A DNA stretch of 64,000 nt from a bacterium (GCA_043810165.1 JBDROJ010000019.1:17524-81523), one strand, 5' to 3'. Numbered from the stretch's first letter, positions 11,944 to 54,882 are shown. Notes: generated from the sequence alone by a model not told the origin. Program-made: numbers and translations.

Positions 11944-12080
11944 TTTGTCATTGCGAGGAGGAGTGTAAGCGTTTCTGTCATTGCGAGCGTAAGCGAAGCA
12001 ATCCCGTTTTTACAGAATCAACGGGATTGCTTCGCTTACGCTCGCAATGACAGACATGCCTTGCTCGCAATGATAGAACA
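11944..12080. repeat. Nested palindromic repeat element, copy A (TGTCATTGCGAG family)
   Basis: tctgtcattgcgagcgtaagcgaagcaatcccgtt[loop]aacgggattgcttcgcttacgctcgcaatgacaga, flanked by extra tcattgcgagg / ctcgcaatga half-sites. Lies between radA and recG. Confidence 0.8.
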
Positions 12081-12082
12081 AA

Positions 12083-14146
12083 TCATTCCAAATGCACTTG
12101 ATCCTCCCATTGTTTAAATTTGTCAGCTATTTGAGGATACTGCTTCAAATCACTCATTACTATCCGCGCCATATCGCGCGCTTTTTTAATTAATTCATGA
12201 TCAGTTAACCGCGCCAAGCTTAAATTCATCATACCGCTCTGTGTTGTTCCATATACTTCGCCAGGACCGCGTATTTCCAAGTCTTTTTCTGCTAAATTAA
12301 AACCATCTCTGGTTTTCTCAAAATACTTAAGGCGATGACCAGCTTTTGGAGAATAATTTTCTACAAATAAAAAACAATAAGACTGATGAACAGACCGACC
12401 TACTCTGCCTCTAAACTGATGCAGTTGGGCCAGGCCAAATCTTTCTGCTCCTTCAATCATCATTACGCTGGCATTGGGAATATCAACCCCCACTTCAATA
12501 ACAGAAGTTGAAACCAATATATCCAATATGCCTTGTTTAAACTTGTGCATGGTTTCTTCTTTCTCTTTAGATTTCATTTTACCATGCAGATAGCCTACCC
12601 GAAGTTTGGGGAAAACTTGTTTAGATAATTTTTCATACTCGCTTAAAACGCTTTTCTTTTCGCTGGCTTCCAGATCTTCAATCAAAGGGCAAACCACAAA
12701 TACTTGCCTGCCATTTTTAACTTGCGTGCGGATAAAATCATAAGCCTTGCTTCTGTTCAGCGGTTCTACAAGGCGGGTTAAAACCGGCTTGCGCCCCGGA
12801 GGCAATTCATTAATAATGGAAACATCAAGATCTCCATATAACATCAAAGCCAGCGATCGCGGTATGGGCGTGGCTGTCATGCTTAAAAAATGCACGCCAA
12901 TGCCTTTTTGTTTCATATTCTTTCTTTGTTCCACTCCAAAACGATGTTGTTCATCAACTATAACCAAGCCCAATTTGCCAAAATCAACGCCTTTGGATAA
13001 AAGAGCATGCGTGCCCACAACTATCTGTATCTTGTTATCACCTAATAAATCTAAAAACTCGCCTCTTTGCCTGGCTTTGGTTTTTTTAATTAGTTGCTTA
13101 TCATTAATCTCAAGCTGTGCCTGCGTCATTAATCCGATGCAAAGTTTCTTGCCTAATAATTTATTAATTTCATGATAATGCTGAACTGCCAATATTTCAG
13201 TTGGCGCCATTAAAACGGCTTGTAAACCATTCAATGTAGTGTTATACATGGCCATGGCCGCGACCACGGTCTTTCCAGATCCCACATCACCAGAAAGGAG
13301 CCGATTCATGGGAGTTGTTTTGTCTAAATCTTGTAAAATTTCCCAACTAGAGACTTTCTGTGGCTTGGTTAAAATAAATGGCAGGCTTTTTACAAACTGT
13401 TTAATTTGTTTTTCTCTAAAAGGCAAACGGCAAGCTCTGCTAGACTGCTTTTCCGATCGTGACATTTCCGCTTTAAGCTGTATTAAAAATAATTCATCAA
13501 ATTTTAATCGGTCAGTGCTTTGTTTTAATTCTTTTTCATTGTCCGGAAAATGAATGCCTTTCAATGCCTTGGGCAAAGAAATTAAATTGGCTTGACTTAA
13601 AATTTTATCTGGCAACCAATCGCGAACTTGTTCAGCCAAACCAATGGCCTGGCTAACCAAAAATCTAATTTGTTTTTGCGTCAAATTGGAAGTCAACGCA
13701 TACATGGGCACTAGACGAGCTGTATGAGTAGTTTGACCACCCTGTTCTTTTTCATAAACCGGCCCAACCATCTGACAACCCAACATATCTTGTTTAACTT
13801 TTCCAGATAGAAAAACAGTATCGCCCGGTTTTAAAACTTTGGTAATAAAAGGTTGTCCAAACCAAACCACACGCAAACTGTCTGTATCATCAGATACCAA
13901 CGCTTGGGTCAATATCCTGCGCTTGCGTGCACTGCGTTTGTTGTTAATTAACTCAATCTTAACTTTTAAACTGGCTGTCTGATCATTTTGCAGGTCTTTT
14001 ATCTTAACTACTTGCCGGTAATCTTCATATCTGAAAGGGAAATGATACAACAAATCACGAGCAGTGTTAATGCCCAATCTTTGCAAGCGTTTTGCCGTTG
14101 TCTTGCCAACCTGATTTAATTTTTCCACTGTTGTTTGCAAATTCAT
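12083..14146 (-). CDS. recG: ATP-dependent DNA helicase RecG
   Basis: 687 aa with an N-terminal wedge/OB region, helicase motifs (GDVGSGKT, DEQHRFGV) and the C-terminal RecG TRG region. Confidence 0.85.
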   Translation of the reverse strand: MNLQTTVEKLNQVGKTTAKRLQRLGINTARDLLYHFPFRYEDYRQVVKIKDLQNDQTASLKVKIELINNKRSARKRRILTQALVSDDTDSLRVVWFGQPFITKVLKPGDTVFLSGKVKQDMLGCQMVGPVYEKEQGGQTTHTARLVPMYALTSNLTQKQIRFLVSQAIGLAEQVRDWLPDKILSQANLISLPKALKGIHFPDNEKELKQSTDRLKFDELFLIQLKAEMSRSEKQSSRACRLPFREKQIKQFVKSLPFILTKPQKVSSWEILQDLDKTTPMNRLLSGDVGSGKTVVAAMAMYNTTLNGLQAVLMAPTEILAVQHYHEINKLLGKKLCIGLMTQAQLEINDKQLIKKTKARQRGEFLDLLGDNKIQIVVGTHALLSKGVDFGKLGLVIVDEQHRFGVEQRKNMKQKGIGVHFLSMTATPIPRSLALMLYGDLDVSIINELPPGRKPVLTRLVEPLNRSKAYDFIRTQVKNGRQVFVVCPLIEDLEASEKKSVLSEYEKLSKQVFPKLRVGYLHGKMKSKEKEETMHKFKQGILDILVSTSVIEVGVDIPNASVMMIEGAERFGLAQLHQFRGRVGRSVHQSYCFLFVENYSPKAGHRLKYFEKTRDGFNLAEKDLEIRGPGEVYGTTQSGMMNLSLARLTDHELIKKARDMARIVMSDLKQYPQIADKFKQWEDQVHLE

Positions 14147-14235
14147 AGCATTCTCATTATATCACAGCTCCAGATATTTTAAAAAACACCTGAATACAAT
14201 ATCAAGGTGTTTTAAAGTATGGTATATTTTAAATC

Positions 14236-14649
14236 TTAAGCGGCCTTTTCAATCATTTGAGCTGTTGGATATTTTCTTAATCTGGCCATTTCTTGTTTAA
14301 GTAATTCTATCTGTCTTACAAGTTTTTCCTCTTTCAAACTCAAGCTTCTTTCATCCAAATCCCTGCGTATAGAATCTAGCTTAATATTTCTCTTCTCCAA
14401 TGCTTTAATTCTATCCAAATCTAATTCACGGCCTCTCTTCAAAAACAATTTGTCTAGTTCTATTTCAAGATCAAGAAATTTTGTACGCACCCTATCCCAT
14501 TTTTCGTAGCTATCCTCGCCCTTTTCAATATCAAGTTCTTCATATATATCTGTTGGCATGTCTTTTTGATACGTCTCAACTTGACTGCCCATTTCAGGAT
14601 CAGTTATATGAACATTGCCTTGCTCAAAGTTGTTTATCTCTAAATCCAT
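14236..14649 (-). CDS. Hypothetical coiled-coil protein
   Basis: 137-aa ORF that is charged and heptad-rich (LEIELDKLFLKRGRELDLDRIKALEKRNIKL). No recognisable catalytic motif. Confidence 0.4.
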   Translation of the reverse strand: MDLEINNFEQGNVHITDPEMGSQVETYQKDMPTDIYEELDIEKGEDSYEKWDRVRTKFLDLEIELDKLFLKRGRELDLDRIKALEKRNIKLDSIRRDLDERSLSLKEEKLVRQIELLKQEMARLRKYPTAQMIEKAA

Positions 14650-14710
14650 ATTTTTTTAATTAAGAAACCGCTAACAAACTACTTCTGGCATCTATTCCTG
14701 TCTAAATCTG

Positions 14711-14782
14711 TGCCCTCGGCAGGAATCGAACCTGCATTGTCAGTTCCGCAAACTGATGTCCTATCCATTGAACGACGAGGAC
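14711..14782 (-). tRNA. tRNA-Arg, anticodon GCG
   Basis: Hand-folded cloverleaf: GTCCTCG/CGAGGGC acceptor, T-loop GGTTCGATTCC, anticodon stem TCAGT/ACTGA with loop TTGCGGA. The overlapping 77-aa ORF (14679..14912) is spurious. Confidence 0.6.
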
Positions 14783-14805
14783 CTGAACTACGGCAGGAAA
14801 CTATA

Positions 14806-15327
14806 TCACAACTTGAATAATCTGGCAAGCCTGTCGCTGAATGGCTCATCTTCATTTTCAAATTCTTCCACCATATATTGGGCAAGATAATCGTGTATAG
14901 CCCTGGGATCATTATCTAATAAAGGTATTTGCAGACGATGCTTTATCACGCTTCTCATGCCAAAATACAGATTTTTTACTTCCGGTGGATTGTAAATTAT
15001 CCAAAAATTCTCAAGCTCGCTATAACGATAAAATTTATTGCCTAACACGATGCCTGTTTCAGTAATCGCAAAATCTACTTCCATGGGATCCTGCATGGAA
15101 TGCAAAAACAAAATAATGGCGAACAAAACTATTACTAATATAAATAGATAATTTCCTGTAAATAATCCGAAAATCAGTAACAATGCGCCGGCCAATCCCA
15201 TCATGGTATACCATCGTCTGTCTGATCCAGGCTTTTCATATTCTCTTACCTGCCACTTATAAATTAGTTTACCGGTATTTACATCTTCTTTGGCCAAATT
15301 TTTAGGCATATACAAAAAAATTAACAA
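14806..15327 (-). CDS. Hypothetical membrane protein (two TM helices, possible bacterial PH-domain type)
   Basis: 173 aa with a hydrophobic pair MMGLAGALLLIFGLFTGNYLFILVIVLFAIILFL. Confidence 0.4.
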   Translation of the reverse strand: MLIFLYMPKNLAKEDVNTGKLIYKWQVREYEKPGSDRRWYTMMGLAGALLLIFGLFTGNYLFILVIVLFAIILFLHSMQDPMEVDFAITETGIVLGNKFYRYSELENFWIIYNPPEVKNLYFGMRSVIKHRLQIPLLDNDPRAIHDYLAQYMVEEFENEDEPFSDRLARLFKL

Positions 15328-15335
15328 TTAAATTG

Positions 15336-15409
<74 letters not shown>

Positions 15410-15511
15410 TCTTGTTAAAATAATAACACAATATACTGCTTAAATCAATGCCTAAGCCAATTTGATAAGCTAGCTTTATTATGTTATTATTAGTTTAAGT
15501 AAAAAGACATA

Positions 15512-17125
15512 ATGGAAAATAATAATGAACCGCTGGATCAAATCCCGGATCAACCACAAATCAATCTACTACGACCGCGTAAAATGCACGGATGGTATCA
15601 AGAAGAGCCTAAACCTAAAAGGTCATTTTTGTTTTATTTAATTCCGGGCATAATAATTGTTTTGATGTTCAGTGCTTTTTCTTTGGCAAAAAAACACAAT
15701 GATAGTTTGTCTGGTAATATTGCTGATTACGACCAGATTACACTACAACCTAAAAAAACCGGCATACTATCCAGCATCAAAAATTTTATTTTCCGCCAAG
15801 AAGATGCCATGCCAGGCGAGTCAAAAGGCAGAATCAATATTTTACTACTCGGCGTTGGTGGGGCAGGACATGATGGCCCTTATTTAAGTGATACTAATAT
15901 AATTGCGAGCATCAACACTGAAACCAATGAAGTGGCCATGGTTTCTGTGCCAAGAGACTTATCCGCCAATATAGAAGGATATGGCTGGACTAAAATAAAT
16001 CATGCCAGTGCTTATGGAGAAATGAAAAAGGAAGGTTATGGCGGGGAATTTGCCAGGCAAACTTTTGAGAAAAATTTTGGTATAAAAATACCATATTACT
16101 TAAGCATAGACTTCAAAGCATTCACTGAAATCATTGACGCTGTTGATGGAATTGGTATAAATGTAGAACACTCCTTTGTAGATTACTCTTATCCAGGCCC
16201 GAATTATAGTTATCAAACCATATATTTCAAACAAGGTCCTGAAAAAATGGGAGGAGAACGAGCTTTGACTTATGCTCGCTCGCGAAAGGGCACAAATGGA
16301 GAAGGTTCTGATTTTGCCCGCGCCAAGAGACAGCAAATTGTTATTGCGGCCTTAAAAAATAAAGTGCTATCAGCCGATACTTATTTGAATCCTTTAAAAA
16401 TTAAAAAGATCATAGATTCTTTGTCCACTCATATTTCGACAAACCTAGATTTTGGACAATTAATGTATCTGGCTGGCTTGTCCAGAAAAATTGATGACAA
16501 AAATATAAAAACCTTGGTATTATCAAATGGCCCAGATAGTTATTTAAAAAATATGATTGGCTATGATGGCGCCTATCTTCTGGTACCTAAAACCGGCAAC
16601 TTTGATCAGATCCAAACCGCCATCAACAATGTATTCAGTACTAGCACCGATGACCTGATCGATTCTCTGTCAGCCACGCCTCAAACAGACCAACTTTTTC
16701 CATCAGCCAAAATTGAAATCCAAAATGGCACTTGGCGTGTAGGATTGGCAGCAATTACCCAAAGAAATTTAGAAGACCAAGGGTTTGCTATTTTTACAGT
16801 TGGTAATAGTTACAAACGCCCTGTGGCCAGCACCACTCTATATATACTTAATACTGAAATTGAGCAGGGTTTTATTGATGCTCTTGAAAGAGAAATGGGC
16901 ATGGAAGCCACCACCAGCCTGCCAATATGGCTATCCACGTTAAGCAGTGATGAGTTGACTTATTTGACTAATAGTACTACAATTCCAATTTCAACAAGTA
17001 GCACTACGTCATCAACTATCATATCTGCCACGACTACTGAAGATACAGATATACATCAAGACAAATATGACCCACAAACTGATATTTTAATAATTCTAGG
17101 AGACGATTATGGCCAGTCCAGCTAA
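15512..17125 (+). CDS. LytR-CpsA-Psr (LCP) family cell-envelope phosphotransferase with a C-terminal LytR_C-like domain
   Basis: N-terminal TM, then an LCP core (INILLLGVGGAGHDGPYLSDTNIIASIN...VSVPRD...INHA...YARSRKG). Confidence 0.75.
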   Translation: MENNNEPLDQIPDQPQINLLRPRKMHGWYQEEPKPKRSFLFYLIPGIIIVLMFSAFSLAKKHNDSLSGNIADYDQITLQPKKTGILSSIKNFIFRQEDAMPGESKGRINILLLGVGGAGHDGPYLSDTNIIASINTETNEVAMVSVPRDLSANIEGYGWTKINHASAYGEMKKEGYGGEFARQTFEKNFGIKIPYYLSIDFKAFTEIIDAVDGIGINVEHSFVDYSYPGPNYSYQTIYFKQGPEKMGGERALTYARSRKGTNGEGSDFARAKRQQIVIAALKNKVLSADTYLNPLKIKKIIDSLSTHISTNLDFGQLMYLAGLSRKIDDKNIKTLVLSNGPDSYLKNMIGYDGAYLLVPKTGNFDQIQTAINNVFSTSTDDLIDSLSATPQTDQLFPSAKIEIQNGTWRVGLAAITQRNLEDQGFAIFTVGNSYKRPVASTTLYILNTEIEQGFIDALEREMGMEATTSLPIWLSTLSSDELTYLTNSTTIPISTSSTTSSTIISATTTEDTDIHQDKYDPQTDILIILGDDYGQSS

Positions 17126-20567: not shown

Positions 20568-20752
20568 TCTGTCATTGTGAGGAGTGTAGTGTTACTGTCA
20601 TTGCGAGCGTGGCATTTCTGTCATTGCGAGCGTGGCATTTCTGTCATTGCGAGCGTAAGCGAAGCAATCTCGTCATCATAGAACCAACGGGATTGCTTCG
20701 TCGCTCCACTCCTCGCAATGACAGTGAATCGCTCGCAATGACAAACAAAAAT
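20568..20752. repeat. Nested palindromic repeat element, copy B (three tandem left half-sites)
   Basis: gtcattgtgaggag...ctgtcattgcgagcgtggcatttctgtcattgcgagcgtggcatttctgtcattgcgagcgtaagcgaagcaatctcg...cgggattgcttcg...cctcgcaatgacag...gctcgcaatgacaaac. The 64-aa ORF 20564..20758 lies inside it and is spurious. Confidence 0.8.
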
Positions 20753-20754
20753 TT

Positions 20755-22068
20755 ATGAACTACACTCAAGCCTACAATTACTTAATATCCTTAAATAATC
20801 TCCCTCGCAATGAATACATGAAGGATCCGCGACACTGTAGCTGGTATCTAAAACGGCTACAGTTTTTTTTGAATATTATTGGCAATCCAGAAAAAAAAGT
20901 CCCTCATTATATTCACGTCACCGGCACAAGTGGCAAAGGTTCGGTTTGTTTATTGCTTGATTCAATACTGCGAGCCAATGGACAAAAAGTCGGCGTTTTA
21001 ACTTCTCCGCATCCGTCAGTTATTACTGAAAGATGGGATATAAACGGCAAGCCAATGAGCCAAAAACAATTCAGCCAAAATATCAGCCAATTAAAATCCA
21101 AACTTGATCAGTATGTTAGAAAGACTCCGTATGACATGCTTTCCTACGGGGAATTTTCCACGGCCATGGCGCTATATCACTTTGCCAAGCAAAAAGTGGA
21201 TTGGGCCGTATTGGAAGTGGGCTGTGGAGGACGTTATGATTCTACAAATATAATCCCGCATAAAGACACAGCCGTGATAACCAATATAGGATTGGATCAC
21301 AAGGGCATAATCGGCAATACCAAGACAAAGATCGCCTACGAAAAATCCGGAATCATTAAAAAAGGATGTAAAGTCTTTACAATGGAAAAAAATAAAAAGA
21401 TTATAGAAGTCATAAAAAAAGAAAATAAAAAAAATAAAACTGAATTTAATATAATCAAGAATACAAGCAAAATTTTACAACAAGATCTGGACGGCATTAA
21501 ATTTAATCATGCAGGTGAAAACTATTTTCTCCCGATTCTGGGAAAACATCAAATAGACAACGCTGTTCTGGCCATTGAAATCGCTCTCTCTTTAAAAATT
21601 CCTGTAAACAATATTAAACAAGGATTAAAAAAAGTTAAGATCCCTGTATGCATGGAAATCGTTTCAAAAAAACCATTGATTATTTTGGACGGAGGACATA
21701 ACCCGGAAAAAATCAAAACTACTGTGGCCACAGCAAAGTTTATAAACAAGCCGATACATCTGATAGTTGGCTTCTCTTACAACAAACAATGGCTCAACAT
21801 GATTAAACAGCTATCCGAATTGGATCCACTGTCCATAGCCTGCACGCGCTTTACTGAAAATTATTTCCGTAAAGCAACCAATCCAAAAGACATAGCTGAT
21901 GAATTTAAAAAATATCTACCTAAAATAAAAACAGAGGTCTTTCTAGACCCAAAGGACGCGCTTGCGTGGTCAAAAAAACAAATAGAAACCAACGATTTGA
22001 TTCTAACAACTGGTTCAGTATTTTTAGGCGGAGAATTGCGAAAACTTTTTAAAAACACTCTGTGTTGA
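20755..22068 (+). CDS. folC: Mur-ligase-family folylpolyglutamate synthase / dihydrofolate synthase-like protein
   Basis: P-loop VTGTSGKGSV, NIGLDHKG motif, and Mur ligase middle and C-terminal domains. Confidence 0.7.
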   Translation: MNYTQAYNYLISLNNLPRNEYMKDPRHCSWYLKRLQFFLNIIGNPEKKVPHYIHVTGTSGKGSVCLLLDSILRANGQKVGVLTSPHPSVITERWDINGKPMSQKQFSQNISQLKSKLDQYVRKTPYDMLSYGEFSTAMALYHFAKQKVDWAVLEVGCGGRYDSTNIIPHKDTAVITNIGLDHKGIIGNTKTKIAYEKSGIIKKGCKVFTMEKNKKIIEVIKKENKKNKTEFNIIKNTSKILQQDLDGIKFNHAGENYFLPILGKHQIDNAVLAIEIALSLKIPVNNIKQGLKKVKIPVCMEIVSKKPLIILDGGHNPEKIKTTVATAKFINKPIHLIVGFSYNKQWLNMIKQLSELDPLSIACTRFTENYFRKATNPKDIADEFKKYLPKIKTEVFLDPKDALAWSKKQIETNDLILTTGSVFLGGELRKLFKNTLC

Positions 22069-28950: not shown

Positions 28951-29112
28951 AATTAATATTGTCATCGCCGACAAAGCATGCCTGTCATCGCGAGCGTTGT
29001 TTTCTTGTCATTGCGAGCGGTTCACTGTCATTGCGAGGAGCAAAGCGACGAAGCAATCTCGTGTTTCTATAGTGACGGGATTGCTTCGCTTACGCTCGCA
29101 ATGACAGACACA
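28951..29112. repeat. Nested palindromic repeat element, copy C
   Basis: cctgtcatcgcgagcg...cttgtcattgcgagcgg...ctgtcattgcgaggagcaaagcgacgaagcaatctcg[loop]gacgggattgcttcgcttacgctcgcaatgacag. Lies between parB and parA. Confidence 0.8.
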
Positions 29113-44462: not shown

Positions 44463-45395
44463 TTATGAATAAGGTTTAGCTAGTTCAACTAAATGTTCGT
44501 ATGTATCGGCTATCATTACTCCTACTTCTGATAAAGCCTTTTCCTTTTCAGCCGCACCTTTACCCCGTTCTACAATCGCACCAGCATGACCGACATTCAT
44601 TCCCTCGGGTAAAACACCCGCAAACTTACCACCTATATATATGGCCAAAGGCTTGGTAAATTCTTGTTTATTTATCAAATCAACAATTTCAAACTCATAA
44701 CTACCACCGTGCTCTCCAAAAATCACTACCACTTTAGTTTGTTCATCTTTTTCAAACATTTTTAACAAGTCAGCGTAAGTAGTACCCATTAATAGATCTC
44801 CACCCACATGAACCACTGTACTTTGGCCTAGACCTGCTTTGCGAATCTGCCAAGCCAATTCATTAGTCATACCGCCGGAACGAGAAATTGCACCCACACT
44901 GCCTGGTTGGAATATTTCTTCAACCAACGGGCCACCCACTACCCCAACTCTGGCTTTGCCCGCTGAAATATACCCTAATGAACTTGGCCCTATAATACGA
45001 ATATCCTTTTCTTTGGCAGCTGCCAGACAATAAGCTGTGTCTTGAATAGGCACTCTTTCCGTCATGATATTTATAACAGAAATGTCATTTTCAATTGCTT
45101 CCATAATTGCCTGCTTGGTGGCAAAAGGAGGCACATAAATGGCGCTGGTGATATTGTGACGAGATTGCTTCGCTTCGCCTGCCTGCCGGACAGGCAGGCT
45201 CGCAATGACAGATAATACTTCGGCCACGGTATCAAAAACCGGCACGCCAAAAACTTGTTCACCGGCTTTGCCAGGGCGCACGCCACCTACCAATTTGGTG
45301 CCATAGTCAAGCATGGCTTGAGTGGCTCGCTGGCCTTCTTTGCCTGTTATACCTTGGATCAAAACTTTTGTATCTTGATTTATCAAAATACTCAT
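44463..45395 (-). CDS. Succinyl-CoA synthetase alpha-like subunit (CoA-binding; citryl-CoA synthetase small-subunit candidate) carrying an in-frame repeat-derived insertion
   Basis: MSILINQDTKVLIQGITGKEG...phospho-His loop MNVGHAGAIV. It aligns with SucD, except for an extra ~17 aa (SLPVRQAGEAKQSRHNI) encoded by a copy of the TGTCATTGCGAGC...GAAGCAATCTCG repeat. Confidence 0.7.
   Translation of the reverse strand: MSILINQDTKVLIQGITGKEGQRATQAMLDYGTKLVGGVRPGKAGEQVFGVPVFDTVAEVLSVIASLPVRQAGEAKQSRHNITSAIYVPPFATKQAIMEAIENDISVINIMTERVPIQDTAYCLAAAKEKDIRIIGPSSLGYISAGKARVGVVGGPLVEEIFQPGSVGAISRSGGMTNELAWQIRKAGLGQSTVVHVGGDLLMGTTYADLLKMFEKDEQTKVVVIFGEHGGSYEFEIVDLINKQEFTKPLAIYIGGKFAGVLPEGMNVGHAGAIVERGKGAAEKEKALSEVGVMIADTYEHLVELAKPYS
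45160..45215. repeat. Repeat element copy D, inserted in-frame inside the SCS-alpha-like CDS
   Basis: Minus-strand sense reads tctgtcattgcgagc-cctgcctgtccggcaggcagg-cgaagcgaagcaatctcgtcac. The family flanks are present around a perfect 8-bp-stem GC hairpin. Local GC is much higher than the surrounding gene. Confidence 0.7.
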
Positions 45396-47521: not shown

Positions 47522-48465
47522 ATAATTTCTTTTAAAATTTTTCCTAATTTAATTGTGCAAAGACCGCCAGCTTCTTTCTCATAATCGCCTGATACTATAT
47601 TGTAATCCACTAAATCAGTTTCATTATATTCAATTAAGTCCCACTTCTTTTTATTATACTTTTGTTTTTGGTCTTCACTTAATTTTGCATTATTAAATAC
47701 AACACTGTCTAATTTACGCGGTAGATAAGTCTGCAATTGTGAAATAAATTCACTTAATTTAGTAGGTCCTGTCTCTCCGTCTATCTCATAAGCATTACCA
47801 ACTATATATATAAATTTAGCTGAAGAATCGGTCATGGCTTGCTTTAAACCCTGGGGCAACAGGGTAGCCACAATACTACAATATAAACTACCCGGACCGA
47901 TGAATATATAATCAGCTTGCTCAATCGCCTGTTTAGCACCCGCATAAACCCGTGCATCCGGCTCCAACCAGGCTTTTTTGATTCTTATTTTTTTATCATA
48001 ATCGGGCCGGTCAATTAGGCCCTCTGTTTTTATAATATCGCCATTTTCTAATTCAACTGCCAAATCAGTTTTGTCTAAAGTTGTTGGATAAACCTTGCCC
48101 ACCGCCTGCACGACCTGTTCTAAAGCTCGTACCGCGCAGACATAGTCTCCCCCATACTGTTCAGCCAATACTAAAAATAAATTGCCCAAATTATGGCTGT
48201 CTAATTTACCAACATTCTTAAATCTGACACGATTAAACATTGCCTTGAGCATGCTATAATCATGCATGGACATGGCCAAAACTGCACGCAGAATATCACC
48301 CGGAGGCAGAGTGTCAAATTCATGACGTAAACGGCCAGAAGATCCGCCAGAATCGCTCATGGAAACAACCGAAGAAATATTTAATAAATCTAAATTCTGT
48401 TTTAAGGCTTGAGTGGTAATGGCTGAACCATTGCCTCCGCCTATTACTACTGCATTTTTTTTCAT
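47512..48465 (-). CDS. YvcK/CofD-family protein (UPF0052 gluconeogenesis factor-like)
   Basis: MKKNAVVIGGGNGS...SMSDSGGSSGRLR matches the YvcK/CofD GGGxG...DDGGSSG signature. The ORF-track N-terminal extension (to 48534) runs into repeat copy E and is probably not translated. Confidence 0.6.
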   Translation of the reverse strand: MKKNAVVIGGGNGSAITTQALKQNLDLLNISSVVSMSDSGGSSGRLRHEFDTLPPGDILRAVLAMSMHDYSMLKAMFNRVRFKNVGKLDSHNLGNLFLVLAEQYGGDYVCAVRALEQVVQAVGKVYPTTLDKTDLAVELENGDIIKTEGLIDRPDYDKKIRIKKAWLEPDARVYAGAKQAIEQADYIFIGPGSLYCSIVATLLPQGLKQAMTDSSAKFIYIVGNAYEIDGETGPTKLSEFISQLQTYLPRKLDSVVFNNAKLSEDQKQKYNKKKWDLIEYNETDLVDYNIVSGDYEKEAGGLCTIKLGKILKEIICK

Positions 48466-48477
48466 AAATTTTTGTTT

Positions 48478-48640
48478 TGTCATTGTGAGGAGCGTAGCGT
48501 TGCTGACATTGCGAGGAGCGTAGCGACGAAGCAATCTCGCCTAGTTATATTGTAACGAGATTGCTTCGCTTACGCTCGCAATGGCAGGAAGACTTGGCTC
48601 GCAATGACAGCAACGCTACGCTCCTCGCAATAACAGATTA
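48478..48640. repeat. Nested palindromic repeat element, copy E
   Basis: ttgtcattgtgaggagcgtagcgttgctgacattgcgaggagcgtagcgacgaagcaatctcg[loop]cgagattgcttcgcttacgctcgcaatggcag...gctcgcaatgacagcaacgctacgctcctcgcaataacag. Confidence 0.8.
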
Positions 48641-49294
48641 TAAACCTAAATATTTAGAAATCTTTTTATCTTCCAAAGAATCAACCACCAAATCAGCCTG
48701 ACTAAAATCTCCAAAACTCCATCTCTTATCAGGCACAGCAATACAAGTCATTCCAGCTCGCTTTGCTGACACCACCCCATTTTCTGCGTCTTCAAAAACT
48801 AAACAGTCTTCAGGTTTCACTTGCAGACGCTCGGCTGTATACAGATAAATCCTTGGATCAGGCTTGCCCACAAAATTTACATGATCAGCTGATACTAATT
48901 CGTCAAAATACTCATGCCAACCAAAACGACCCACAACTAATTTGACACTGTCCAACGGTGCTCCTGAAGCGATTGCTTGCTTTATTTTCTCTTTCTTAAT
49001 ATTTCTAATTAAGTCAACTACTCCAGGCATAATTTTTGTTTTTTTCTGATAAAGTTCTTCTATCCTCTTATTTCTAAAGACAAATAAATCATCAATCGGT
49101 TGATCTATATTAAATTTTTCTTTCAACCAGGCCATACCTTCTTCTACACTCCTACCGGTTAAATATTTTATGGTATCTTCGGTTAACTCAAAGTCTATCT
49201 GTGAAAACAACTCCTTATCCAATTCAATCCAATGGATCATGCTGTCCACCAGCAAACCATCCATGTCATAAATTACCGCTTTAAATTTATTCAT
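48638..49294 (-). CDS. HAD-superfamily hydrolase (subfamily IA, beta-phosphoglucomutase-like)
   Basis: KAVIYDMDGLLVDS motif I with downstream motifs II/III. Confidence 0.65.
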   Translation of the reverse strand: MNKFKAVIYDMDGLLVDSMIHWIELDKELFSQIDFELTEDTIKYLTGRSVEEGMAWLKEKFNIDQPIDDLFVFRNKRIEELYQKKTKIMPGVVDLIRNIKKEKIKQAIASGAPLDSVKLVVGRFGWHEYFDELVSADHVNFVGKPDPRIYLYTAERLQVKPEDCLVFEDAENGVVSAKRAGMTCIAVPDKRWSFGDFSQADLVVDSLEDKKISKYLGL

Positions 49295-49296
49295 AT

Positions 49297-51120
49297 TTAT
49301 TCTACAGTTACGCTCTTGGCTAAATTTCTCGGTCTATCCACGTCTTTTCCCAACAAAACAGCCATATGATAAGCAAACAACTGTAAAGGTATGGAATTTA
49401 ATAATGGCTCCAATAATTCCATGGTCTTTGGCACATAAATCAAATCATCGGCAAGTTCTTTTGCCTGTTCATCATCTTCATTAACCACCAAAATTACCGG
49501 AGTTTCTCTGGCTCTAACTTCTTCAATATTGCTCCTAACTTTTTCATACAACTGATTCTTAGTCATCAATGCCACTACCAGCAAATCCGGAGACAATAAC
49601 GCATTGGCACCATGCTTCATCTCGCCAGCTGGATAACATTCACTATGAATATATGATATTTCTTTTAATTTATGAGATCCTTCCAATGCAACAGGAAAAT
49701 TAATGCCTCTCCCCAAATATAGTGCGTCACTAAAACCCTTATATTTATTAACTAATTGTTTAATGGTGTCATTAGTTTCTAAAACCTTATTCATTTTTTC
49801 TGGGATCTCTAATAAAGCTTGCAATAAGCGCTGTCCTGTGGCCAAACTGACCCTGTTTAAACGGCCGAACTGTAAAGCTAATAATATCATTATGGCTATC
49901 ATATTGGTGTAAGCTTTTGTGGAAGCAACTGCCAGCTCCGGACCGGCATGAATATAACTACCGCCATCTGTCTCGCGTGCGATAGTAGAACCGACAACAT
50001 TGACTATGCCTCTAACAAACGCCCCGCGACGCTTGGCCTCCCGCAAGGCCGCCAATGTATCAGCGGTTTCCCCGGATTGAGACACGGCAAATACCAAAGT
50101 ATTTTTATTAACAATGGGATCGCGATAACGAAATTCACTGGCCACGTCAACTTCAACCGGAATTCCTGACAATCTTTCAAAAGCGTACTTGCCGATCATG
50201 GCTGCATAATTGGCTGTACCACAGGCAATAAAAATAACCCGATTTATCTGATGCATTTGCTCTTCAGTCATATTCAAACCGCCCAAATGAGCGGTGCCCT
50301 CTTCCAAATTATATCGTCCGCGAATTGCATCTTCAAATACAGTGGGTTGGTCAAAAATTTCTTTAAGCATAAAATGATCATAGCCTTGCTTTTGAGCTTG
50401 ATCTTCATCCCAATCAATATGCTCAACCTGTTTGGTTATTTCTTTGTCTTTTAAAGTATATGTTTTGTAGCCTTCATAATTAATTTCAACAATTTCCCCA
50501 TCATCAAGAAAAAATACCTCCTTGGTATGAGTTAAAAGAGGAGATGTGTCTGAAGCCACAAAGTATTCCCCTTGATCAAATCCAACCACCAACGGACTAC
50601 CCAAACGAGCGGCCACCAGCTTGCCTTCCTCTTTGCAATGCATGGCCACCAAGCCATAAGTTCCTCTCACTTTTGTCAAGGCCTTTTCCATGGCCAAGCG
50701 CAAATCACCTTCATAAAAATACTCAATCAGATGAGCCAGTACTTCTGTATCAGTTTCTGAAACAAATTTATGGTCTTTTAAATATTCATCCTTTAATTCG
50801 CGATAATTTTCAATTATTCCATTGTGTACAACCACCAGATCCTTGGTACAACCCCAATGAGGATGGGCATTTTCATCAGTAACACCGCCGTGCGTGGCCC
50901 AGCGAGTATGAGCTATGCCTACTGTACCGCGCAGGCTCGCATTTTTTAGCTTTGCCTCCAAATTACCTATTCTTCCTGATGATTTTTCAATGCAAATCTC
51001 ATGATCTTGGCAGATTGCCACGCCAGCACTGTCATAACCCCTATATTCAAGCCGGCGCAAACCTTGAATTAATATGGGCAAAGCTTGTTTTTTACCAATG
51101 TATCCAATTATTCCACACAT
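49297..51120 (-). CDS. glmS: Glutamine--fructose-6-phosphate aminotransferase
   Basis: N-terminal MCGIIGYIG (Ntn Cys), two SIS domains, and C-terminal ...SVTVE. Confidence 0.9.
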   Translation of the reverse strand: MCGIIGYIGKKQALPILIQGLRRLEYRGYDSAGVAICQDHEICIEKSSGRIGNLEAKLKNASLRGTVGIAHTRWATHGGVTDENAHPHWGCTKDLVVVHNGIIENYRELKDEYLKDHKFVSETDTEVLAHLIEYFYEGDLRLAMEKALTKVRGTYGLVAMHCKEEGKLVAARLGSPLVVGFDQGEYFVASDTSPLLTHTKEVFFLDDGEIVEINYEGYKTYTLKDKEITKQVEHIDWDEDQAQKQGYDHFMLKEIFDQPTVFEDAIRGRYNLEEGTAHLGGLNMTEEQMHQINRVIFIACGTANYAAMIGKYAFERLSGIPVEVDVASEFRYRDPIVNKNTLVFAVSQSGETADTLAALREAKRRGAFVRGIVNVVGSTIARETDGGSYIHAGPELAVASTKAYTNMIAIMILLALQFGRLNRVSLATGQRLLQALLEIPEKMNKVLETNDTIKQLVNKYKGFSDALYLGRGINFPVALEGSHKLKEISYIHSECYPAGEMKHGANALLSPDLLVVALMTKNQLYEKVRSNIEEVRARETPVILVVNEDDEQAKELADDLIYVPKTMELLEPLLNSIPLQLFAYHMAVLLGKDVDRPRNLAKSVTVE

Positions 51121-51130
51121 AATTTTAAAA

Positions 51131-51628
51131 TTAATATTTTATCCCTAATTCAAATGCTTTTTGATTTTCTTCCCAGCCAATTTTAGCGCTCAATTTTTTA
51201 CTTAATGAATCACTCAACAAATCCAAGTTCATTATATTTTGATCAGCCAATTTTTTTCCTAATAAGCCGAGAAAAAATATATTGTATGATTGTTCTTGAA
51301 TCTGGTTTTGTTTAAAATTTTCCAAATAATCTTCAATATACAAAACTTCAGCGTCTTCAATATAATGTTGAGTTCGTTCTCTGGCTTGTTCTGACATAAT
51401 CAATAAAATATCAGGTTTTGTAAATCTGGGATAAACAATTTCTTTATTACTAATCTGCACAAAAGCCAATGACACGCCACCGCGCTGTTCCAAACCAAAA
51501 TTAGGAATATCAGTAACATAAAATCCGTTAGCAAAAGCAGTTTGTGTTAATAGGTTGGCGATTGTTTGCAAGCCTTGCCCGCCGTCGCCGGCAAAAATAA
51601 TTTTTATGTTCATATTATAATTCACCAA
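51131..51628 (-). CDS. 2-oxoacid:ferredoxin oxidoreductase gamma subunit
   Basis: IIFAGDGGQGLQTIANLLT is the POR gamma signature. 165 aa. Confidence 0.7.
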   Translation of the reverse strand: MVNYNMNIKIIFAGDGGQGLQTIANLLTQTAFANGFYVTDIPNFGLEQRGGVSLAFVQISNKEIVYPRFTKPDILLIMSEQARERTQHYIEDAEVLYIEDYLENFKQNQIQEQSYNIFFLGLLGKKLADQNIMNLDLLSDSLSKKLSAKIGWEENQKAFELGIKY

Positions 51629-52289
51629 TTTTAAAAACTTCTTTAATGCCGTCTAGACGATCCAAGGTATCCTTACCTCTTGTCCTCCAATTAGTGGGGC
51701 AAAAAGATAAAACTTCAACCATGGCAAAATGTCCAGCTTGTTGAGTTTTAACGGCTTTTTCAAGATATTCCATAAGATCTTTTGGGTCATTTACAGCTGT
51801 GCGCGCCAAATATGCATCTTTATTGGCTACTTGCTTTATTAATTCAAGTCCGAACAAAGGCTCTTGATCTATGCCTTGCGGATTAGTACTGGTAATTTGT
51901 CCGACCAAACTGGTGGGAGCAGTCTGCCCTCCGGTCATGGCATAAAGTGTATTATTTATCACAATAATACTTACAGCTTCATCGCGCTTGGCCGAATGCA
52001 ATAAATTTTGCAAGCCGATAGCATAAGCTCCGCCATCTCCGGTCAAGCCCAAACTGATTGAATCGGGTTGAGCGCCTTTAAAACCAATCATAGTAGGCGT
52101 AACCCGGCCATGGTGAGTTTGAAAGGTATTGATGGGCAAAAAATTAATTGCTAAAAGCGAACAGCCGATATCAAGACCAAGTACAGCCTGATCAATCAAG
52201 CCTAATTTTTCTAATACTTTATTCAGAGTCATTAATACCATGGGATAACCGCAACCTGGACAAAATTTTGACAATTTGGGATTATACAT
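51615..52289 (-). CDS. 2-oxoacid:ferredoxin oxidoreductase beta subunit (TPP-binding)
   Basis: CPGCGY...GDGG-containing TPP-binding motif (LTGDGGAYAIG). Confidence 0.7.
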   Translation of the reverse strand: MYNPKLSKFCPGCGYPMVLMTLNKVLEKLGLIDQAVLGLDIGCSLLAINFLPINTFQTHHGRVTPTMIGFKGAQPDSISLGLTGDGGAYAIGLQNLLHSAKRDEAVSIIVINNTLYAMTGGQTAPTSLVGQITSTNPQGIDQEPLFGLELIKQVANKDAYLARTAVNDPKDLMEYLEKAVKTQQAGHFAMVEVLSFCPTNWRTRGKDTLDRLDGIKEVFKIGEL

Positions 52290-53307
52290 ATCTTTTTACA
52301 ATTTCTTCTGGCTCTATACCCAGACCTGGATAATGCCAGCCATTTAATTCAATATTAATTTGAGAATCCAGATCATCTCTAACCAGCCTTTCTAGCTGGC
52401 CTGCTGATGATTCAATCACTGTAATTTTTTTGATTCTAGATGCGACTTCACTCAATTGTTTTTTGGGAAAAGGACGAATACTGATCGGGCGGAACAAACC
52501 AACTTTCTTTCCTTGTTCACGCAAATCATCCACCGCCTGTTTAGCGCTTGCCCCGACTATGCCATGGGCTATAAATAATTCTTCAGCATCTTCAACCATA
52601 TATTGTTCAGCCGATTCTATTTGAGGCCTAATTTTATCAAAATCCTGCTGATCTTTATTTAATTTTTCATATAATTCTTCCTCTAAAGTATATATACTGG
52701 GCAGATGGACATTCTGTCCGGGACTAACCAGAGGATATGATTTAACATTTTCCTGATTAGGCTGTCTGACAAGATCAACCACGCCTTTCATTTTTAGCAA
52801 GTACCCATCGGTCAAAACTATGGCGGGAAAACGATATTTCCAGACATCATTAAAAGCCTTGATTGTTAAATTATAAAGTTCATTTAAGTTGGAAGGAGAA
52901 TATACCAAGCGCATGCCTTCGCCATTACCCCCATAGCAAGACAATATTACTTCTTGCTGAGAATAAATTACAGTGCCAGAACTTGGGCCACCGCGCTGGC
53001 CAATAATAGCCACAAAAGGCAGACGCATACCTTCGGCCATGCTCATGCCATCTTGCATTAAAACATGACCAGGACCGGCCGTGGCTGTAAAAGCCTTTTG
53101 CCCGCCTAATACTGCGCCGCACACTGCAAAACCTGCTGATATTTCATCTTCAGTCTGTAGATATGGCAAACCGCGCCCAATCCAACCGCTAAACACCTCG
53201 CTACTTGGAGTAATCGGATAGCCATACATGATATCAGCGCCTGCATCCACGCAAGCTTGCAAAGTCACCTCGGCTCCGGTTAATAATTGTTTTTTATTTT
53301 CAGTCAT
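52282..53307 (-). CDS. 2-oxoacid:ferredoxin oxidoreductase alpha subunit
   Basis: POR alpha domains. The likely start is MTENKKQLLTGAEV (the ORF-track extension to 53376 overlaps the upstream gene). No delta/ferredoxin subunit is adjacent. Confidence 0.65.
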   Translation of the reverse strand: MTENKKQLLTGAEVTLQACVDAGADIMYGYPITPSSEVFSGWIGRGLPYLQTEDEISAGFAVCGAVLGGQKAFTATAGPGHVLMQDGMSMAEGMRLPFVAIIGQRGGPSSGTVIYSQQEVILSCYGGNGEGMRLVYSPSNLNELYNLTIKAFNDVWKYRFPAIVLTDGYLLKMKGVVDLVRQPNQENVKSYPLVSPGQNVHLPSIYTLEEELYEKLNKDQQDFDKIRPQIESAEQYMVEDAEELFIAHGIVGASAKQAVDDLREQGKKVGLFRPISIRPFPKKQLSEVASRIKKITVIESSAGQLERLVRDDLDSQINIELNGWHYPGLGIEPEEIVKRYV

Positions 53308-53309
53308 AA

Positions 53310-54080
53310 TTACAAAAATAATTTTTTTCTTTTGTCCGCTTCTTCCAATTCTTCTTTGGTATTCACGCCAAACCACTCTCTCCTGTCCTGCAATTTAACA
53401 ACTCGCACAGACAAGCCTTCTTTTTGAGCCATCATAAAGGCAGTAGGCAACCCATACTCGCCCAGCTTTTCAATAATCGGCATATTGGGAAACATATTCT
53501 TATACCACCTTCTATTAAAACAAAAAGTTCCGGTGCTGGTTTCAGTGGTGTGCCTATTCTCTTCGGTCAGGTATTCTTTCTCAATTATATCTATCTCATG
53601 GCCGTTTCTAATTATACGCCCGTAAGCAAAAGAAGAAGAATCAATGCTAGTGGAAAGCAAAGATACCATGGCTTGTTCCTCAATATGCTGATTTATTAAA
53701 TTTTCAATTGTAGTTGATTTAAAAAAGGCACTATCATCTCCGTTCATGACCAATATATTATCAACTTCATCAGGTAATGCTTTTATACCAATATACGTGG
53801 CGTGGGCTGTGCCCAACTGTTCTTCTTGCACCGCATAAGTAACCTTGTCACCAAAAAAATCCATAACTTTTTCTTTGTGAAAACCAACTACCAAAGAAAT
53901 TTTTTCTTTGGTAAACCCAAGCCGGTATAAGGTGTCGACAATATAACTGACGATTGGCTTTCCTCCTATTTCCAGCATCGTCTTGGGCGTATCATTGCAT
54001 TGCAGACGCGTGCCTTGTCCAGCTGACAAAACCACGGCTCCAAAATTACCTATTATCCCTGATATATTCATATATTTCAT
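53310..54080 (-). CDS. Sugar-1-phosphate nucleotidylyltransferase, GlmU N-terminal (uridylyltransferase)-like, without an LbH acetyltransferase domain
   Basis: AVVLSAGQGTRL, PKTMLEIGGKPIV, QEEQLGTAHAT and a GDD-like NGDDSAF. 256 aa. Confidence 0.6.
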   Translation of the reverse strand: MKYMNISGIIGNFGAVVLSAGQGTRLQCNDTPKTMLEIGGKPIVSYIVDTLYRLGFTKEKISLVVGFHKEKVMDFFGDKVTYAVQEEQLGTAHATYIGIKALPDEVDNILVMNGDDSAFFKSTTIENLINQHIEEQAMVSLLSTSIDSSSFAYGRIIRNGHEIDIIEKEYLTEENRHTTETSTGTFCFNRRWYKNMFPNMPIIEKLGEYGLPTAFMMAQKEGLSVRVVKLQDRREWFGVNTKEELEEADKRKKLFL

Positions 54081-54696
54081 TTAAAGTTTTAAAATATGGT
54101 AATTGGCTTTTAATATATTCTTGCTCGTCTATGTCTTCGGATTTTTTTAGAATGTAATTAATTTTTGGATGATTCTTTTTGACATTGAGAGTTTCATCCG
54201 GACGATTGTTTATAAACCAGATTTTTGATAAATTTTTTCCATTTGCCAATTCTGCAACCACATCGCTTTTGTCTGTGCGCGTTAATATAAATCTATCAAA
54301 GTATTCTTCAAAACCCGATCCTTTGGCTTTTAAAGTTTGAAAATCCGTATCGCCAAAACTTAATAAAATCATTGGTTCTCCCAAACTTTTCATTTGTCCT
54401 AAAAAAGACAGAGAATCCGAAAATAAAAAAGTTTTTAAAATTTCTGAACTAATTGTTTTTTCCAAAGCTTGAAAAACTTCCTCTTGATCAAAACCATGCT
54501 TGGATAAAACTTGAGCGTGCTTTATATTATTATAGCCAATCGGTTCCTGATTGCGCGCTTCAGAATAAGTCTTGTCATACAGGTCTTCAGTAACGCCCAA
54601 TTTATTTAGAACAGACAAACGAACTTCTTTAAAACCGTGCACGCCCCTTGTATTGAATAATGTATCATCAAGGTCAATTATGAACATAGAACTCAT
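54046..54696 (-). CDS. HAD-like hydrolase
   Basis: MFIIDLDDTLFNT is a DxD motif I. Confidence 0.5.
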   Translation of the reverse strand: MSSMFIIDLDDTLFNTRGVHGFKEVRLSVLNKLGVTEDLYDKTYSEARNQEPIGYNNIKHAQVLSKHGFDQEEVFQALEKTISSEILKTFLFSDSLSFLGQMKSLGEPMILLSFGDTDFQTLKAKGSGFEEYFDRFILTRTDKSDVVAELANGKNLSKIWFINNRPDETLNVKKNHPKINYILKKSEDIDEQEYIKSQLPYFKTLNEIYEYIRDNR

Positions 54697-54726
54697 ATTA
54701 AATTTTTTAGATTAGTCTCGTGGATA

Positions 54727-54882
54727 ATGGGCGTTTCTGTCATTGCTAGCGTAGCGCTATTGTCATTGCGAGGAGCGGAGCGACGAAGCAATCTCGCTGC
54801 CCTAGAACCAACGAGATTGCTTCGCTTACGCTCGCAATGACAGAAACGCTATACAGGCTCGCAATGACAGATTTGACTAATT
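54727..54882. repeat. Nested palindromic repeat element, copy F
   Basis: gtttctgtcattgctagcgtagcgctattgtcattgcgaggagcggagcgacgaagcaatctcg[loop]cgagattgcttcgcttacgctcgcaatgacagaaacgct...gctcgcaatgacag. Confidence 0.8.

Follow-up and report, generated by a model that had tools for sequence, protein, structure and literature searches.

Oriented hairpin repeats in a Patescibacteria genome and their association with a small GIY-YIG nuclease gene

Six repeat loci and their common unit

The window analysed here is a 64-kb stretch of bacterial DNA containing six repeat loci, E1 to E6, which inspection of the sequence located where an earlier note had placed them (Table 1). The note ascribed one architecture to all six and put them in intergenic gaps between housekeeping genes. 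Five of the six are indeed head-to-head inverted dimers (U-loop-U', with the tags outside) carrying extra truncated outer half-units, and the flanking genes are as it described (RadA-like|RecG, ParB|ParA and CofD (YvcK-like)|HAD), but E4 is a single minus-strand unit that has no inverted partner and lies inside sucD. The long nested stems are real, with arms of 40 nt (95% match) in E1 and 47 nt (85% match) in E5, and DNA folding energies of the elements from -36 to -62 kcal/mol. The description of the elements as far more GC-rich than the host was right in direction but overstated in size (47-59% for the elements vs 38% for the window).

Table 1. Repeat elements of the window and their parts
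Feature	Position	Strand	Description
E1	11944..12080	.	head-to-head dimer, gap between converging RadA-like gene and recG
E1 outer half-unit	11946-11957		truncated
E1 U	11975-12008		full; outer box 11976-11987, inner box 11994-12006
E1 loop	12009-12019		
E1 U'	12020-12053		
E1 outer right half-unit	12064-12075		degenerate
E2	20568..20752	.	dimer, gap between unknown ORF and Mur-ligase-family gene
E2 left half-unit	20570-20581		degenerate
E2 left half-units	20596-20607, 20619-20630		exact 23-nt tandem repeat
E2 U	20641-20674		full
E2 U'	20686-20724		
E2 outer right half-unit	20732-20743		start codon of next gene 12 nt past it
E3	28951..29112	.	dimer, gap between parB and parA
E3 left half-units	~28959-28971, 28983-28994, 29006-29017		degenerate/truncated
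E3 U	29025-29062		full
E3 U'	29075-29107		
E4	45160..45215	-	solo U, in frame within sucD (44463-45395, minus)
E4 outer box	45199-45210		
E4 inner box	45160-45172		
E4 inner hairpin	between the boxes		CCTGCCTG-TCCGG-CAGGCAGG
E5	48478..48640	.	nested dimer, gap between HAD hydrolase and cofD/yvcK-like genes
E5 outer truncated pair	48478-48500 / 48614-48635		
E5 extra right half-unit	48598-48609		
E5 U	48503-48541		full
E5 U'	48554-48587		
E6	54727..54882	.	dimer, gap between TrmB-like regulator gene and unknown gene (HAD-like by synteny)
E6 outer left half-unit	54738-54749		
E6 U	54760-54798		full
E6 U'	54810-54843		
E6 outer right half-unit	54858-54869		

The window has 30 matches to the 12-mer TGTCATTGCGAG when up to two mismatches are allowed, whereas shuffled sequence gives 4.1 +/- 2.1. 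For CGAAGCAATCYCG, exact matches number 11 against 1.5 expected, and one further match, with two mismatches, is at chance level. The window copies appear to share common descent, because a loop sequence is common to them.

The unit U reads (C/T)TGTC-ATTGC-GAG-(variable hairpin)-CGAA-GCAAT-CYCG. It opens with an unpaired (C/T)GTC tag, followed by the stem ATTGC/GCAAT with a C directly after it; we read tandem G.A pairs and a G-C pair as extensions of this stem. A variable inner hairpin of 3-26 nt takes the place of the loop. GTC and the trailing C are retained in nearly all variants and are the most conserved positions, the base before GTC being T in 71% and C in 25%; TGTC-AT...AT-C is present in all units. 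The stem occurs as ATTGC/GCAAT (419), ATCGC/GCGAT (16), ACTGC/GCAGT (8), ATTAC/GTAAT (4) and ACCGC/GCGGT (2), with 1 in the non-reversed control, and in 21 distinct units the closing pair is A-T, C-G or T-A in place of G-C. Between the boxes there is likewise a covarying hairpin, which differs from one arm to the other within a single element. Because stem, closing pair and inner hairpin all covary, U evidently folds on its own. The fold is also asymmetric between strands, the triloop on the U strand being GNA in 56 cases and TNC in 1. Direct reading of the sequence shows five of the six reading frames of U to be open, and exact U units were found in viral contigs as well as across many bacterial phyla.

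The half-sites that the earlier note saw beside the core do exist, and their sequence identifies them as U truncated within the inner hairpin. Growth by slippage, as it suggested, could plausibly have given the exact 23-nt tandem half-units of E2, but it leaves unexplained the half-units that mirror each other across an element. Neither nested insertion nor slippage nor fold-back copying accounts for all of these mirrored truncated half-units, each covering only some of them.

Insertion sites and the flanked GIY-YIG gene

The window copies entered their sites by insertion, because syntenic relatives have empty sites. The HAD and CofD genes, which E5 separates in the window, overlap by 4 nt in two relatives (L201 and L202), and the TrmB|HAD gap that holds E6 is 5 nt long in L201. 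The E4-encoded peptide in succinyl-CoA ligase alpha (the sucD product) reads ...LSVIASLPVRQAGEAKQSRHNI..., and the window SucD is 14 residues longer than that of relatives without the insert; this loop of the protein repeatedly tolerates such inserts. Elements are often embedded in larger hairpins. Analysis of 102 isolated copies revealed no direct-repeat excess at any offset, i.e. no target-site duplication; a 7-nt repeat at E5, TTTAT(A/G)A, was considered as a duplication and rejected as it did not generalise over the same copies.

Elsewhere, the repeats flank a gene. In a set of 80 metagenome loci picked solely by a 95-aa GIY-YIG protein, 61 of 78 carry U in the 150 nt upstream of the gene and 52 of 79 carry U' in the 150 nt downstream; both flank it in 43 of 77 loci and at least one does so in 70 of the 80, the background density of units being 0.19 per kb. 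The stop codon usually stands 3 nt ahead of GATTGCTTCG, and translated U forms the start of over-long gene calls. More distant homologs are flanked by other hairpins, with the GTC tag kept in all, and a subgroup with variant flanks also clusters by its GIY-YIG protein sequence (p about 0.007).

Protein P0010 shares 48% identity (E 3e-33) with the product of the N. gonorrhoeae ssnA homolog, a gene that has the NTS/dRS3 hairpins, CGTCATTCCCGCGCAGGCGGGAATCTAG, on its flanks. The ~95-aa protein has a predicted GIY-YIG fold, and NCBIfam holds no model specific to it. The gene flanked by the repeats belongs to the Ssn family of single-domain GIY-YIG nucleases and does not encode the IS200/IS605-type Y1 transposase (TnpA-REP/RAYT) that the earlier note had proposed as partner. 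The alternative that it offered of a protein-binding motif was right in kind. Ssn proteins are a GIY-YIG ssDNA nuclease family and their hairpins are termed Ssn-related motifs, or SRM (Chenal et al., Nat Commun 2025, PMC11893778). Assays cover four Ssn homologs; SsnA of N. meningitidis, the one tried with all types of substrate, binds the cognate hairpin solely as ssDNA of one strand, with no binding of RNA or duplex, and the cleavage point of SsnA lies a few nucleotides upstream of the tag (PMC11893778).

The gene was recovered by a targeted phmmer search. All-against-all BLASTP of ORFs near 148 units gave no recurrent neighbour, because the gene is rare beside gene-less copies. It lies between units in only 2 of 240 loci picked by the repeat alone, so most copies are far from any ssn gene, and in 0 of 120 viral loci; gene-less copies outnumber gene-bearing ones by about 100:1. 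The 64-kb window itself contains no ssn gene. A small GIY-YIG gene in L201 was considered as a member and rejected, as it is not of the Ssn family.

Origin and spread of the repeats

We consider it probable (roughly 0.8) that the six loci are one family of oriented hairpin repeats of the SRM/CGTC-REP kind, inserted as gene-less derivatives. In other genomes U and an inverted U' bracket the gene for the ~95-aa Ssn-family nuclease; the window copies would be derivatives that lack it, i.e. five head-to-head dimers and one solo U tolerated in frame in sucD. A putative cognate Ssn may act on these copies, and its nicks in ssDNA (during replication, repair or DNA uptake) could drive their spread. 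This reading draws on the structure and its strand asymmetry, the empty sites, the association of repeat and gene, and the homology with the ssnA homolog of Neisseria, all observed here, and on the ssDNA-only binding and cleavage of Ssn substrates, which come from the literature (PMC11893778) and would apply to U by analogy. The GNA triloops of the U strand and the covarying stem favour such a single-strand, one-sided action on U indirectly.

More tentatively, U-ssn-U' might be an autonomous transposable element of ~0.4 kb that makes no target duplication, prefers hairpin tips and therefore nests, sheds gene-less dimers at ~100:1, and crosses phyla partly on phages, even into reduced CPR genomes. 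We regard this as possible rather than likely; the empty sites, the missing target duplication and the hairpin-embedded flanks fit it without proving it. If true, U-ssn-U' would be the first IS-like element driven by a GIY-YIG single-strand nuclease, an IS-like idea for Ssn having already been raised by Chenal et al. (PMC11893778).

The excess of gene-less copies would also suit an unlikely converse, in which the palindromes are targets that spread by other means and the small GIY-YIG gene, like a free-standing homing endonuclease gene, was copied into their centres. Some genes do sit between two complete dimers and not between single units (L136 and L163), and elements often lie within larger hairpins, so hairpin tips may be insertion targets. 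However, the cuts made by the assayed Ssn homologs fall outside the hairpin, upstream of the tag, and not at the dimer centre, and in most loci the gene abuts single units, its stop codon merging into U'. A change of hairpin family also goes with a change of protein clade, as expected if the two travel as one unit, and no other candidate spreading agent recurs beside the palindromes.

That the copies are in the first place bidirectional terminators, mRNA stabilisers or structured regulatory RNAs, with spread as a secondary matter, is a little less probable again. Their location inside operons means that they must be transcribed, they fold very stably, and many REPs have been argued to be RNA elements (Di Nocera, De Gregorio and Rocco, BMC Genomics 2013, PMC3733652). 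However, any transcript of a dimer holds both U and its complement, yet the features of the U strand alone are conserved (GNA vs TNC); one copy is translated within sucD, and the SsnA protein does not bind RNA (PMC11893778). The terminator role raised in the earlier note finds neither a T-tract nor a terminator-like call at E1-E3, and the structured RNA that it named as a refutation was not found: a search of Rfam gave nothing at the gathering threshold and only generic hairpin matches at the E-value threshold.

We attach very little weight to the copies being REPINs of the classical REP/RAYT kind, with a Y1 (HUH) tyrosine transposase, encoded at another site, to move them. In general appearance they agree (oriented hairpin, unpaired tag, inverted dimers, no target duplication), but the tag is (C/T)GTC and not GTAG, the flanked gene is of the GIY-YIG type, no other neighbour family recurs, and for CGTC units Di Nocera et al. 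found neither a flanked transposase gene nor any associated enzyme (PMC3733652). Least credible of all are the classical, Correia-like MITEs also suggested by the earlier note, i.e. deletion derivatives of a DDE-transposase IS with terminal inverted repeats and target duplication: inverted-repeat ends and the absence of an ORF would suit them, but the 102 isolated copies carry no duplication at any offset, no DDE gene is associated, and single units occur alone and self-fold.

The family of gene-less hairpin repeats opens no new category, because both the kind of repeat (2013) and the partner enzyme (2025) are already published. What is new is the sequence family TGTCATTGCGAG...CGAAGCAATC, which is distinct and very widespread, with exact copies in many phyla and viral contigs, and its setting in a Patescibacteria/CPR genome with clean filled-versus-empty sites, which together with the insert-tolerant SucD loop provide handles on how the repeats spread. 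The family also accounts for many 'hypothetical' peptides and spurious N-terminal extensions of genes in annotated metagenomes, and it supplies new hairpin-nuclease pairs for the ssDNA tools proposed for Ssn enzymes.

Comparison with known systems

Literature searches by unit sequence and translated peptides returned primers or nothing. Four known structures were rejected by eye: the hammerhead-like core (GAG-stem-CGAA is shared, CUGAUGA absent), the K-turn (the bulge is wrong), integron attC (no RYYYAAC/GTTRRRY boxes) and CRISPR or TIGR arrays (no spacers). The Rickettsia palindromic elements (RPE) resemble the window family, as judged from their description, in being tolerated in frame in conserved protein genes, here sucD and relatives, but differ in sequence and host. 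The REP/REPIN-RAYT and IS200/IS605 systems share tagged hairpins recognised as ssDNA, a lack of target duplication, and inverted dimers that greatly outnumber the flanked gene. They differ in enzyme (HUH vs GIY-YIG) and tag (GTAG vs GTC), and transposition chemistry is demonstrated for IS200/IS605, not for Ssn.

The window repeats most probably belong with the CGTC/TGTC-tagged REPs, now termed Ssn-related motifs, so that REP/BIME-like, as the earlier note had it, was the right neighbourhood. The CGTC-tagged REPs include Neisseria dRS3 and Rickettsia RPE-4/RPE-6 (PMC3733652). Like U, they have an unpaired terminal CGTC/TGTC tag, a stem whose first pairs are A-T and T-A, and a short unpaired tail; like the window family, they occur predominantly as head-to-head dimers (tags outside) with variable spacers, include in-frame intragenic copies and are spread over several phyla. 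Their stem is 8-9 bp, whereas that of U has 5 Watson-Crick pairs, a GA/GA-type interior and a G-C pair; their loop is 4-5 nt, against the 3-26-nt hairpin at the loop position of U; and their tail is CCA, against CYC.

U shares with SRM its oriented hairpin, the conserved (C/T)GTC upstream and the conserved C right after the palindrome. The published search motif, HGTCWYN(0-2)YYVSBRHN(0-5)WNVSBRGN(0-2)RNCYNB, was built from 29 genomes and is a search aid and not a definition; it has 0 matches in the window, examples of U failing it and the Neisseria NTS passing. As the pattern misses the TGTCATTGCGAG...CGAAGCAATC family, the present SRM census is likely an undercount. The window host also differs, the Patescibacteria/CPR group being unmentioned in PMC11893778.

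In Neisseria, incoming ssDNA bearing NTS is cut and transformation is thereby modulated (PMC11893778), a role that may or may not hold in the present genome. NTS are rarely found inside genes there, whereas one window copy is in frame in a gene. The stem of U differs in sequence from that of NTS and is interrupted by apparent tandem G.A pairs, and its loop is a hairpin of 3-26 nt. The outer parts are nonetheless alike: CGTCATT-CCCGC-loop-GCGGG-AATCYRG in NTS/dRS3 and TGTCATT-GCGAG-hairpin-CGAAGC-AATCYCG in the window, each flanking homologous GIY-YIG genes (~95 aa, 48% identity). The GTC tag and the post-stem C are important for cleavage and binding in Neisseria, and no positions of the window family are better conserved. 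In vitro, the NTS loop can be replaced or extended, in agreement with the variable inner hairpin of U.

The six loci and their repeat unit

All six repeat loci claimed in the earlier note were found at the positions it described. Within the window, TGTCATTGCGAG with up to two mismatches had 30 matches versus 4.1 expected, and CGAAGCAATCYCG had 11 exact matches versus 1.5 expected. The elements have a GC content of 47-59%, compared with 38% for the window, and inverted arms that measure 40 nt at 95% identity in E1 and 47 nt at 85% in E5. The architecture that the note ascribed to all six loci holds for five of them; these are dimers (U-loop-U', i.e. a single hairpin unit U, a loop and the inverted unit U') with their TGTC tags outward, whereas the remaining locus, E4, is a lone intragenic unit.

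Repeat loci and rRNA-region features of the window
Feature	Position	Strand	Context
E1	11944-12080		RadA-like gene / recG
E2	20568-20752		unknown ORF / Mur-ligase gene
E3	28951-29112		parB / parA
E4	45160-45215	minus	lone U, in frame within succinyl-CoA ligase alpha gene
E5	48478-48640		cofD (yvcK-like) / HAD hydrolase
E6	54727-54882		TrmB-like gene / unknown ORF
5S and 23S rRNA genes	58760-62616		separated by about 1.07 kb
89-aa ORF	59361-59630		in the 5S/23S gap; no Pfam match

U has the sequence (C)TGTC-ATTGC-GAG-(variable segment)-CGAA-GCAAT-CYCG. The dimers are flanked on each side by one to three truncated units, broken within the variable segment, and two of those in E2 form an exact 23-nt tandem repeat. 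The loop sequence (TTGGTTCTA-like) is common to all five dimers, which therefore go back to a single ancestor lacking the gene and not to independent deletions.

When E2 (20641-20724) is compared with E6 (54760-54843), the loop motif TAGAACCAA lies in the same orientation, but the arm type with the CGTAAG inner hairpin and the one with the GAGCGNAGCGA inner hairpin have changed places, a flip/flop-like relation. A 16-nt string, AAACAAAAATTTATGA, is identical at E2 (20743-20760) and E5 (48460-48478, minus strand), where it links the element's right end to the start codon of the gene that follows; it reflects either chance (AT-rich start contexts) or element-borne sequence. Same-orientation tandem arrays of units with a period of about 50-90 nt occur in two comparison loci, L004 (1370-1870, Chloroflexus MAG) and L094 (1537-2270); none was seen within the window. 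Elsewhere in the window, the 23S rRNA gene (2680 nt) spans the whole Rfam model (2925 positions), and the 5S and 23S genes have no adjacent 16S gene.

The flanked GIY-YIG gene and its hairpins

Clustering of the ORFs near 148 units gave no recurrent neighbour gene. A targeted search found an ORF of ~95 aa encoding a GIY-YIG protein exactly between U and U' in two comparison loci (L077 and L048). This protein family has at least 8000 matches and 18,208 clusters at 50% identity (E up to 0.001), with members 65-80% identical in Firmicutes, Dehalococcoidia, Cyanobacteria, Desulfobacteraceae, WOR-3 and KSB1, and its over-long gene calls open with translated repeat. In 80 metagenome loci retrieved via the protein alone, U lay within 150 nt upstream of the gene in 61 of 78 and U' within 150 nt downstream in 52 of 79; one or the other was beside the gene in 70 of 80, compared with a background density of 0.19 units per kb. 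Typically, GATTGCTTCG follows the stop codon at a distance of 3 nt. Among loci found through the repeat, only 2 of 240 have the gene between units, and the 64-kb window contains no ssn gene (the single-domain GIY-YIG nuclease family). By sequence, the U-flanked protein has a single relative in the PDB, which belongs to UPF0213; the fold predicted for the U-flanked protein matches those of UPF0213, the N-terminal domain of UvrC, and Slx1.

Less closely related homologs, carried by plasmids, chromosomes and viral contigs, have other hairpins alongside, with the GTC tag kept: TGTCATTCTGAG..CGAAGAATC in Planktothrix, TGTCATCCCGAG..CGAGGGATC in Spirosoma, CGTCATCCCAGGGCTTGACCCTGGGATCC in Rhizobium, GGTCCCAGCTTTCGCTGGGAT and GTCACCCCGGACTTGTTCCGGGGTG in viral contigs, and CGTCATTCCCGCGCAGGCGGGAATCTAG in Neisseria gonorrhoeae. 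A subgroup with a flank variant also groups by protein sequence. These two results show that gene and hairpins change together. The layout could also be read as homing, i.e. a gene entering palindromes already present, which is possible at a low probability.

On Planktothrix agardhii plasmid p1 (NZ_LR882964.1, 18450-19513) the neighbours of the ssn homolog are an MmeI-type restriction-modification gene on one side and DISARM drmA on the other, and its variant repeat (TGTCATTCTGAG..CGAAGAATC) shows three tandem truncated half-units followed by a full unit, a growth pattern shared with the window. In GCA_014729395.1 (locus L201, 16640-17260), from a relative of the organism that the window comes from, an 87-aa GIY-YIG ORF of non-Ssn type directly follows a tRNA gene; this ORF is flanked on both sides by the same 3' part of the tRNA, 41 nt long, as in a small tRNA-integrated element.

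Scanning one genome per species with TGTCATTGCGAG-N(2-26)-CGAAGCAATC gave at least 120 stretches, and the scan of viral contigs also gave at least 120. Judged by record titles, the 80 matches listed for the genomes include Alpha-, Gamma- and Deltaproteobacteria, Chloroflexi, Patescibacteria, Cyanobacteria, Bacteroidota (Flavobacterium, Mucilaginibacter, Chryseobacterium, Hymenobacter), Campylobacterales (Helicobacter rodentium), Planctomycetota, Omnitrophota, Gemmatimonadetes, Spirochaetaceae, Bacillota and Opitutaceae.

Hairpin signal and mode of insertion

The segment between the boxes of U is itself a hairpin in which pairing is kept and sequence is free (e.g. CCGCC-GCA-GGCGG, GGCGC-GCA-GCGCC, GCAC-GAA-GTGC). 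This inner hairpin is often unlike between the two arms of a single element, and each arm therefore folds independently. The outer stem covaries (ATTGC/GCAAT 419, ATCGC/GCGAT 16, ACTGC/GCAGT 8, ATTAC/GTAAT 4, ACCGC/GCGGT 2; control 1), and the closing G-C pair is swapped for A-T, C-G or T-A in 21 distinct units. The U-strand triloops are GNA in 56 cases versus the complementary TNC in 1, an asymmetry that argues against a purely double-stranded signal, which would be symmetric. C-GNA-G triloops and tandem G.A pairs (Y-GA-R context) are classic marks of very stable DNA hairpins. Together with the triloop asymmetry, these features lead us to infer from sequence that U is a single-stranded DNA signal. 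An explanation as a terminator or structured RNA fails: there is no T-tract and no terminator-like call at E1-E3, no Rfam family matches, and the triloops differ between strands. Side effects on transcripts are possible.

Comparison with relatives points to insertion. The HAD and cofD genes overlap by 4 nt in two syntenic relatives, versus the 163-nt E5 in the window, and the E6 site is a 5-nt gap in one syntenic relative. SucD (the succinyl-CoA ligase alpha protein) has 296 aa in uninserted relatives and 14 additional residues in the window; in many relatives, the surface loop that holds the window insert has different in-frame inserts of hairpin origin, among them a full dimer (VIASEAKQS...EIASSSSTSRNDN) and variants from other hairpin families. 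In many CPR relatives (SucD alignment A2, proteins P0121-P0233) this surface loop, between VFxTVxEA and SAIYVPP, has in-frame inserts from several hairpin-repeat families (VIAS..., VILS..., VILN..., VIPT...). The loop is either an insertion hot spot or the site of an old insert overwritten repeatedly.

In 102 isolated copies (from loci L001-L120 and L204-L323) conservation ends 1-2 bases beyond GTC...GAC, and no target duplication or flanking direct repeats were found. A classical MITE reading fails, as there is neither target duplication nor a matching partner. Inverted complementarity of the flanks of isolated elements is in excess (9 cases of 8 nt or more versus 1.1 expected), and many copies therefore lie inside larger hairpins, an embedding consistent with insertion at hairpin tips. 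Such insertion may be the cause of the nesting, although none of the single processes considered yields the mirrored truncated half-units. In locus L184 a gene-bearing element is enclosed by GAAAAACGAGG...CCTCGTTTTTC.

Relation to published tagged repeats

A REP superfamily tagged with CGTC or TGTC, which takes in Neisseria dRS3 and Rickettsia RPE-4 and RPE-6, was defined by Di Nocera et al. 2013 (PMC3733652). Its stems start with A-T and T-A pairs and the unpaired tail is short; head-to-head dimers with outward tags predominate, in-frame copies inside genes occur, and a dedicated transposase is apparently missing according to the authors (PMC3733652). Tagged repeats were linked to a nuclease family by Chenal et al. 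2025 (PMC11893778). SsnA of N. meningitidis is a 94-aa single-domain GIY-YIG protein (cd10448) that binds the NTS hairpin solely as single-stranded DNA, on one strand, and neither RNA nor duplex; it cleaves a few nucleotides upstream of the hairpin, with cleavage depending on the three nucleotides before the stem and binding on the C after it, and loop removal or extension is tolerated (PMC11893778). Motifs lie near the gene in 71% of Ssn homologs, the Neisseria system reduces transformation by NTS-bearing DNA, and the authors hypothesize that the NTS-ssnA-NTS layout resembles an insertion sequence (PMC11893778).

A REP/RAYT reading fails, given the tag and the flanked gene. The REP/BIME-like reading of the earlier note came close, the window units being of the tagged-REP/Ssn-related motif (SRM) family; the Y1 transposase it suggested as partner was wrong, the flanked gene being GIY-YIG. 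The published degenerate SRM pattern has no match in the window; it accepts NTS and rejects U, and the variants of Planktothrix and Spirosoma escape it as well. The window host is near Candidatus Magasanikbacteria (SucD 78-80% identical), a group that goes unmentioned in Chenal et al. 2025 (PMC11893778).

The hairpin beside ssnA in Neisseria is the dRS3/NTS repeat. Its outer parts align with the window unit, (C/T)GTCATT...AATCY-G, whereas the stem of the window unit differs in sequence and is interrupted, and its loop is a hairpin. The U-flanked GIY-YIG protein is 48% identical to the NTS-flanked N. gonorrhoeae homolog (E 3e-33). Because of these NTS-like outer parts and this homologous partner, we class the window repeats as one family of Ssn-related motifs; the window feature is real, and is a new sequence family among an already published kind of repeat.
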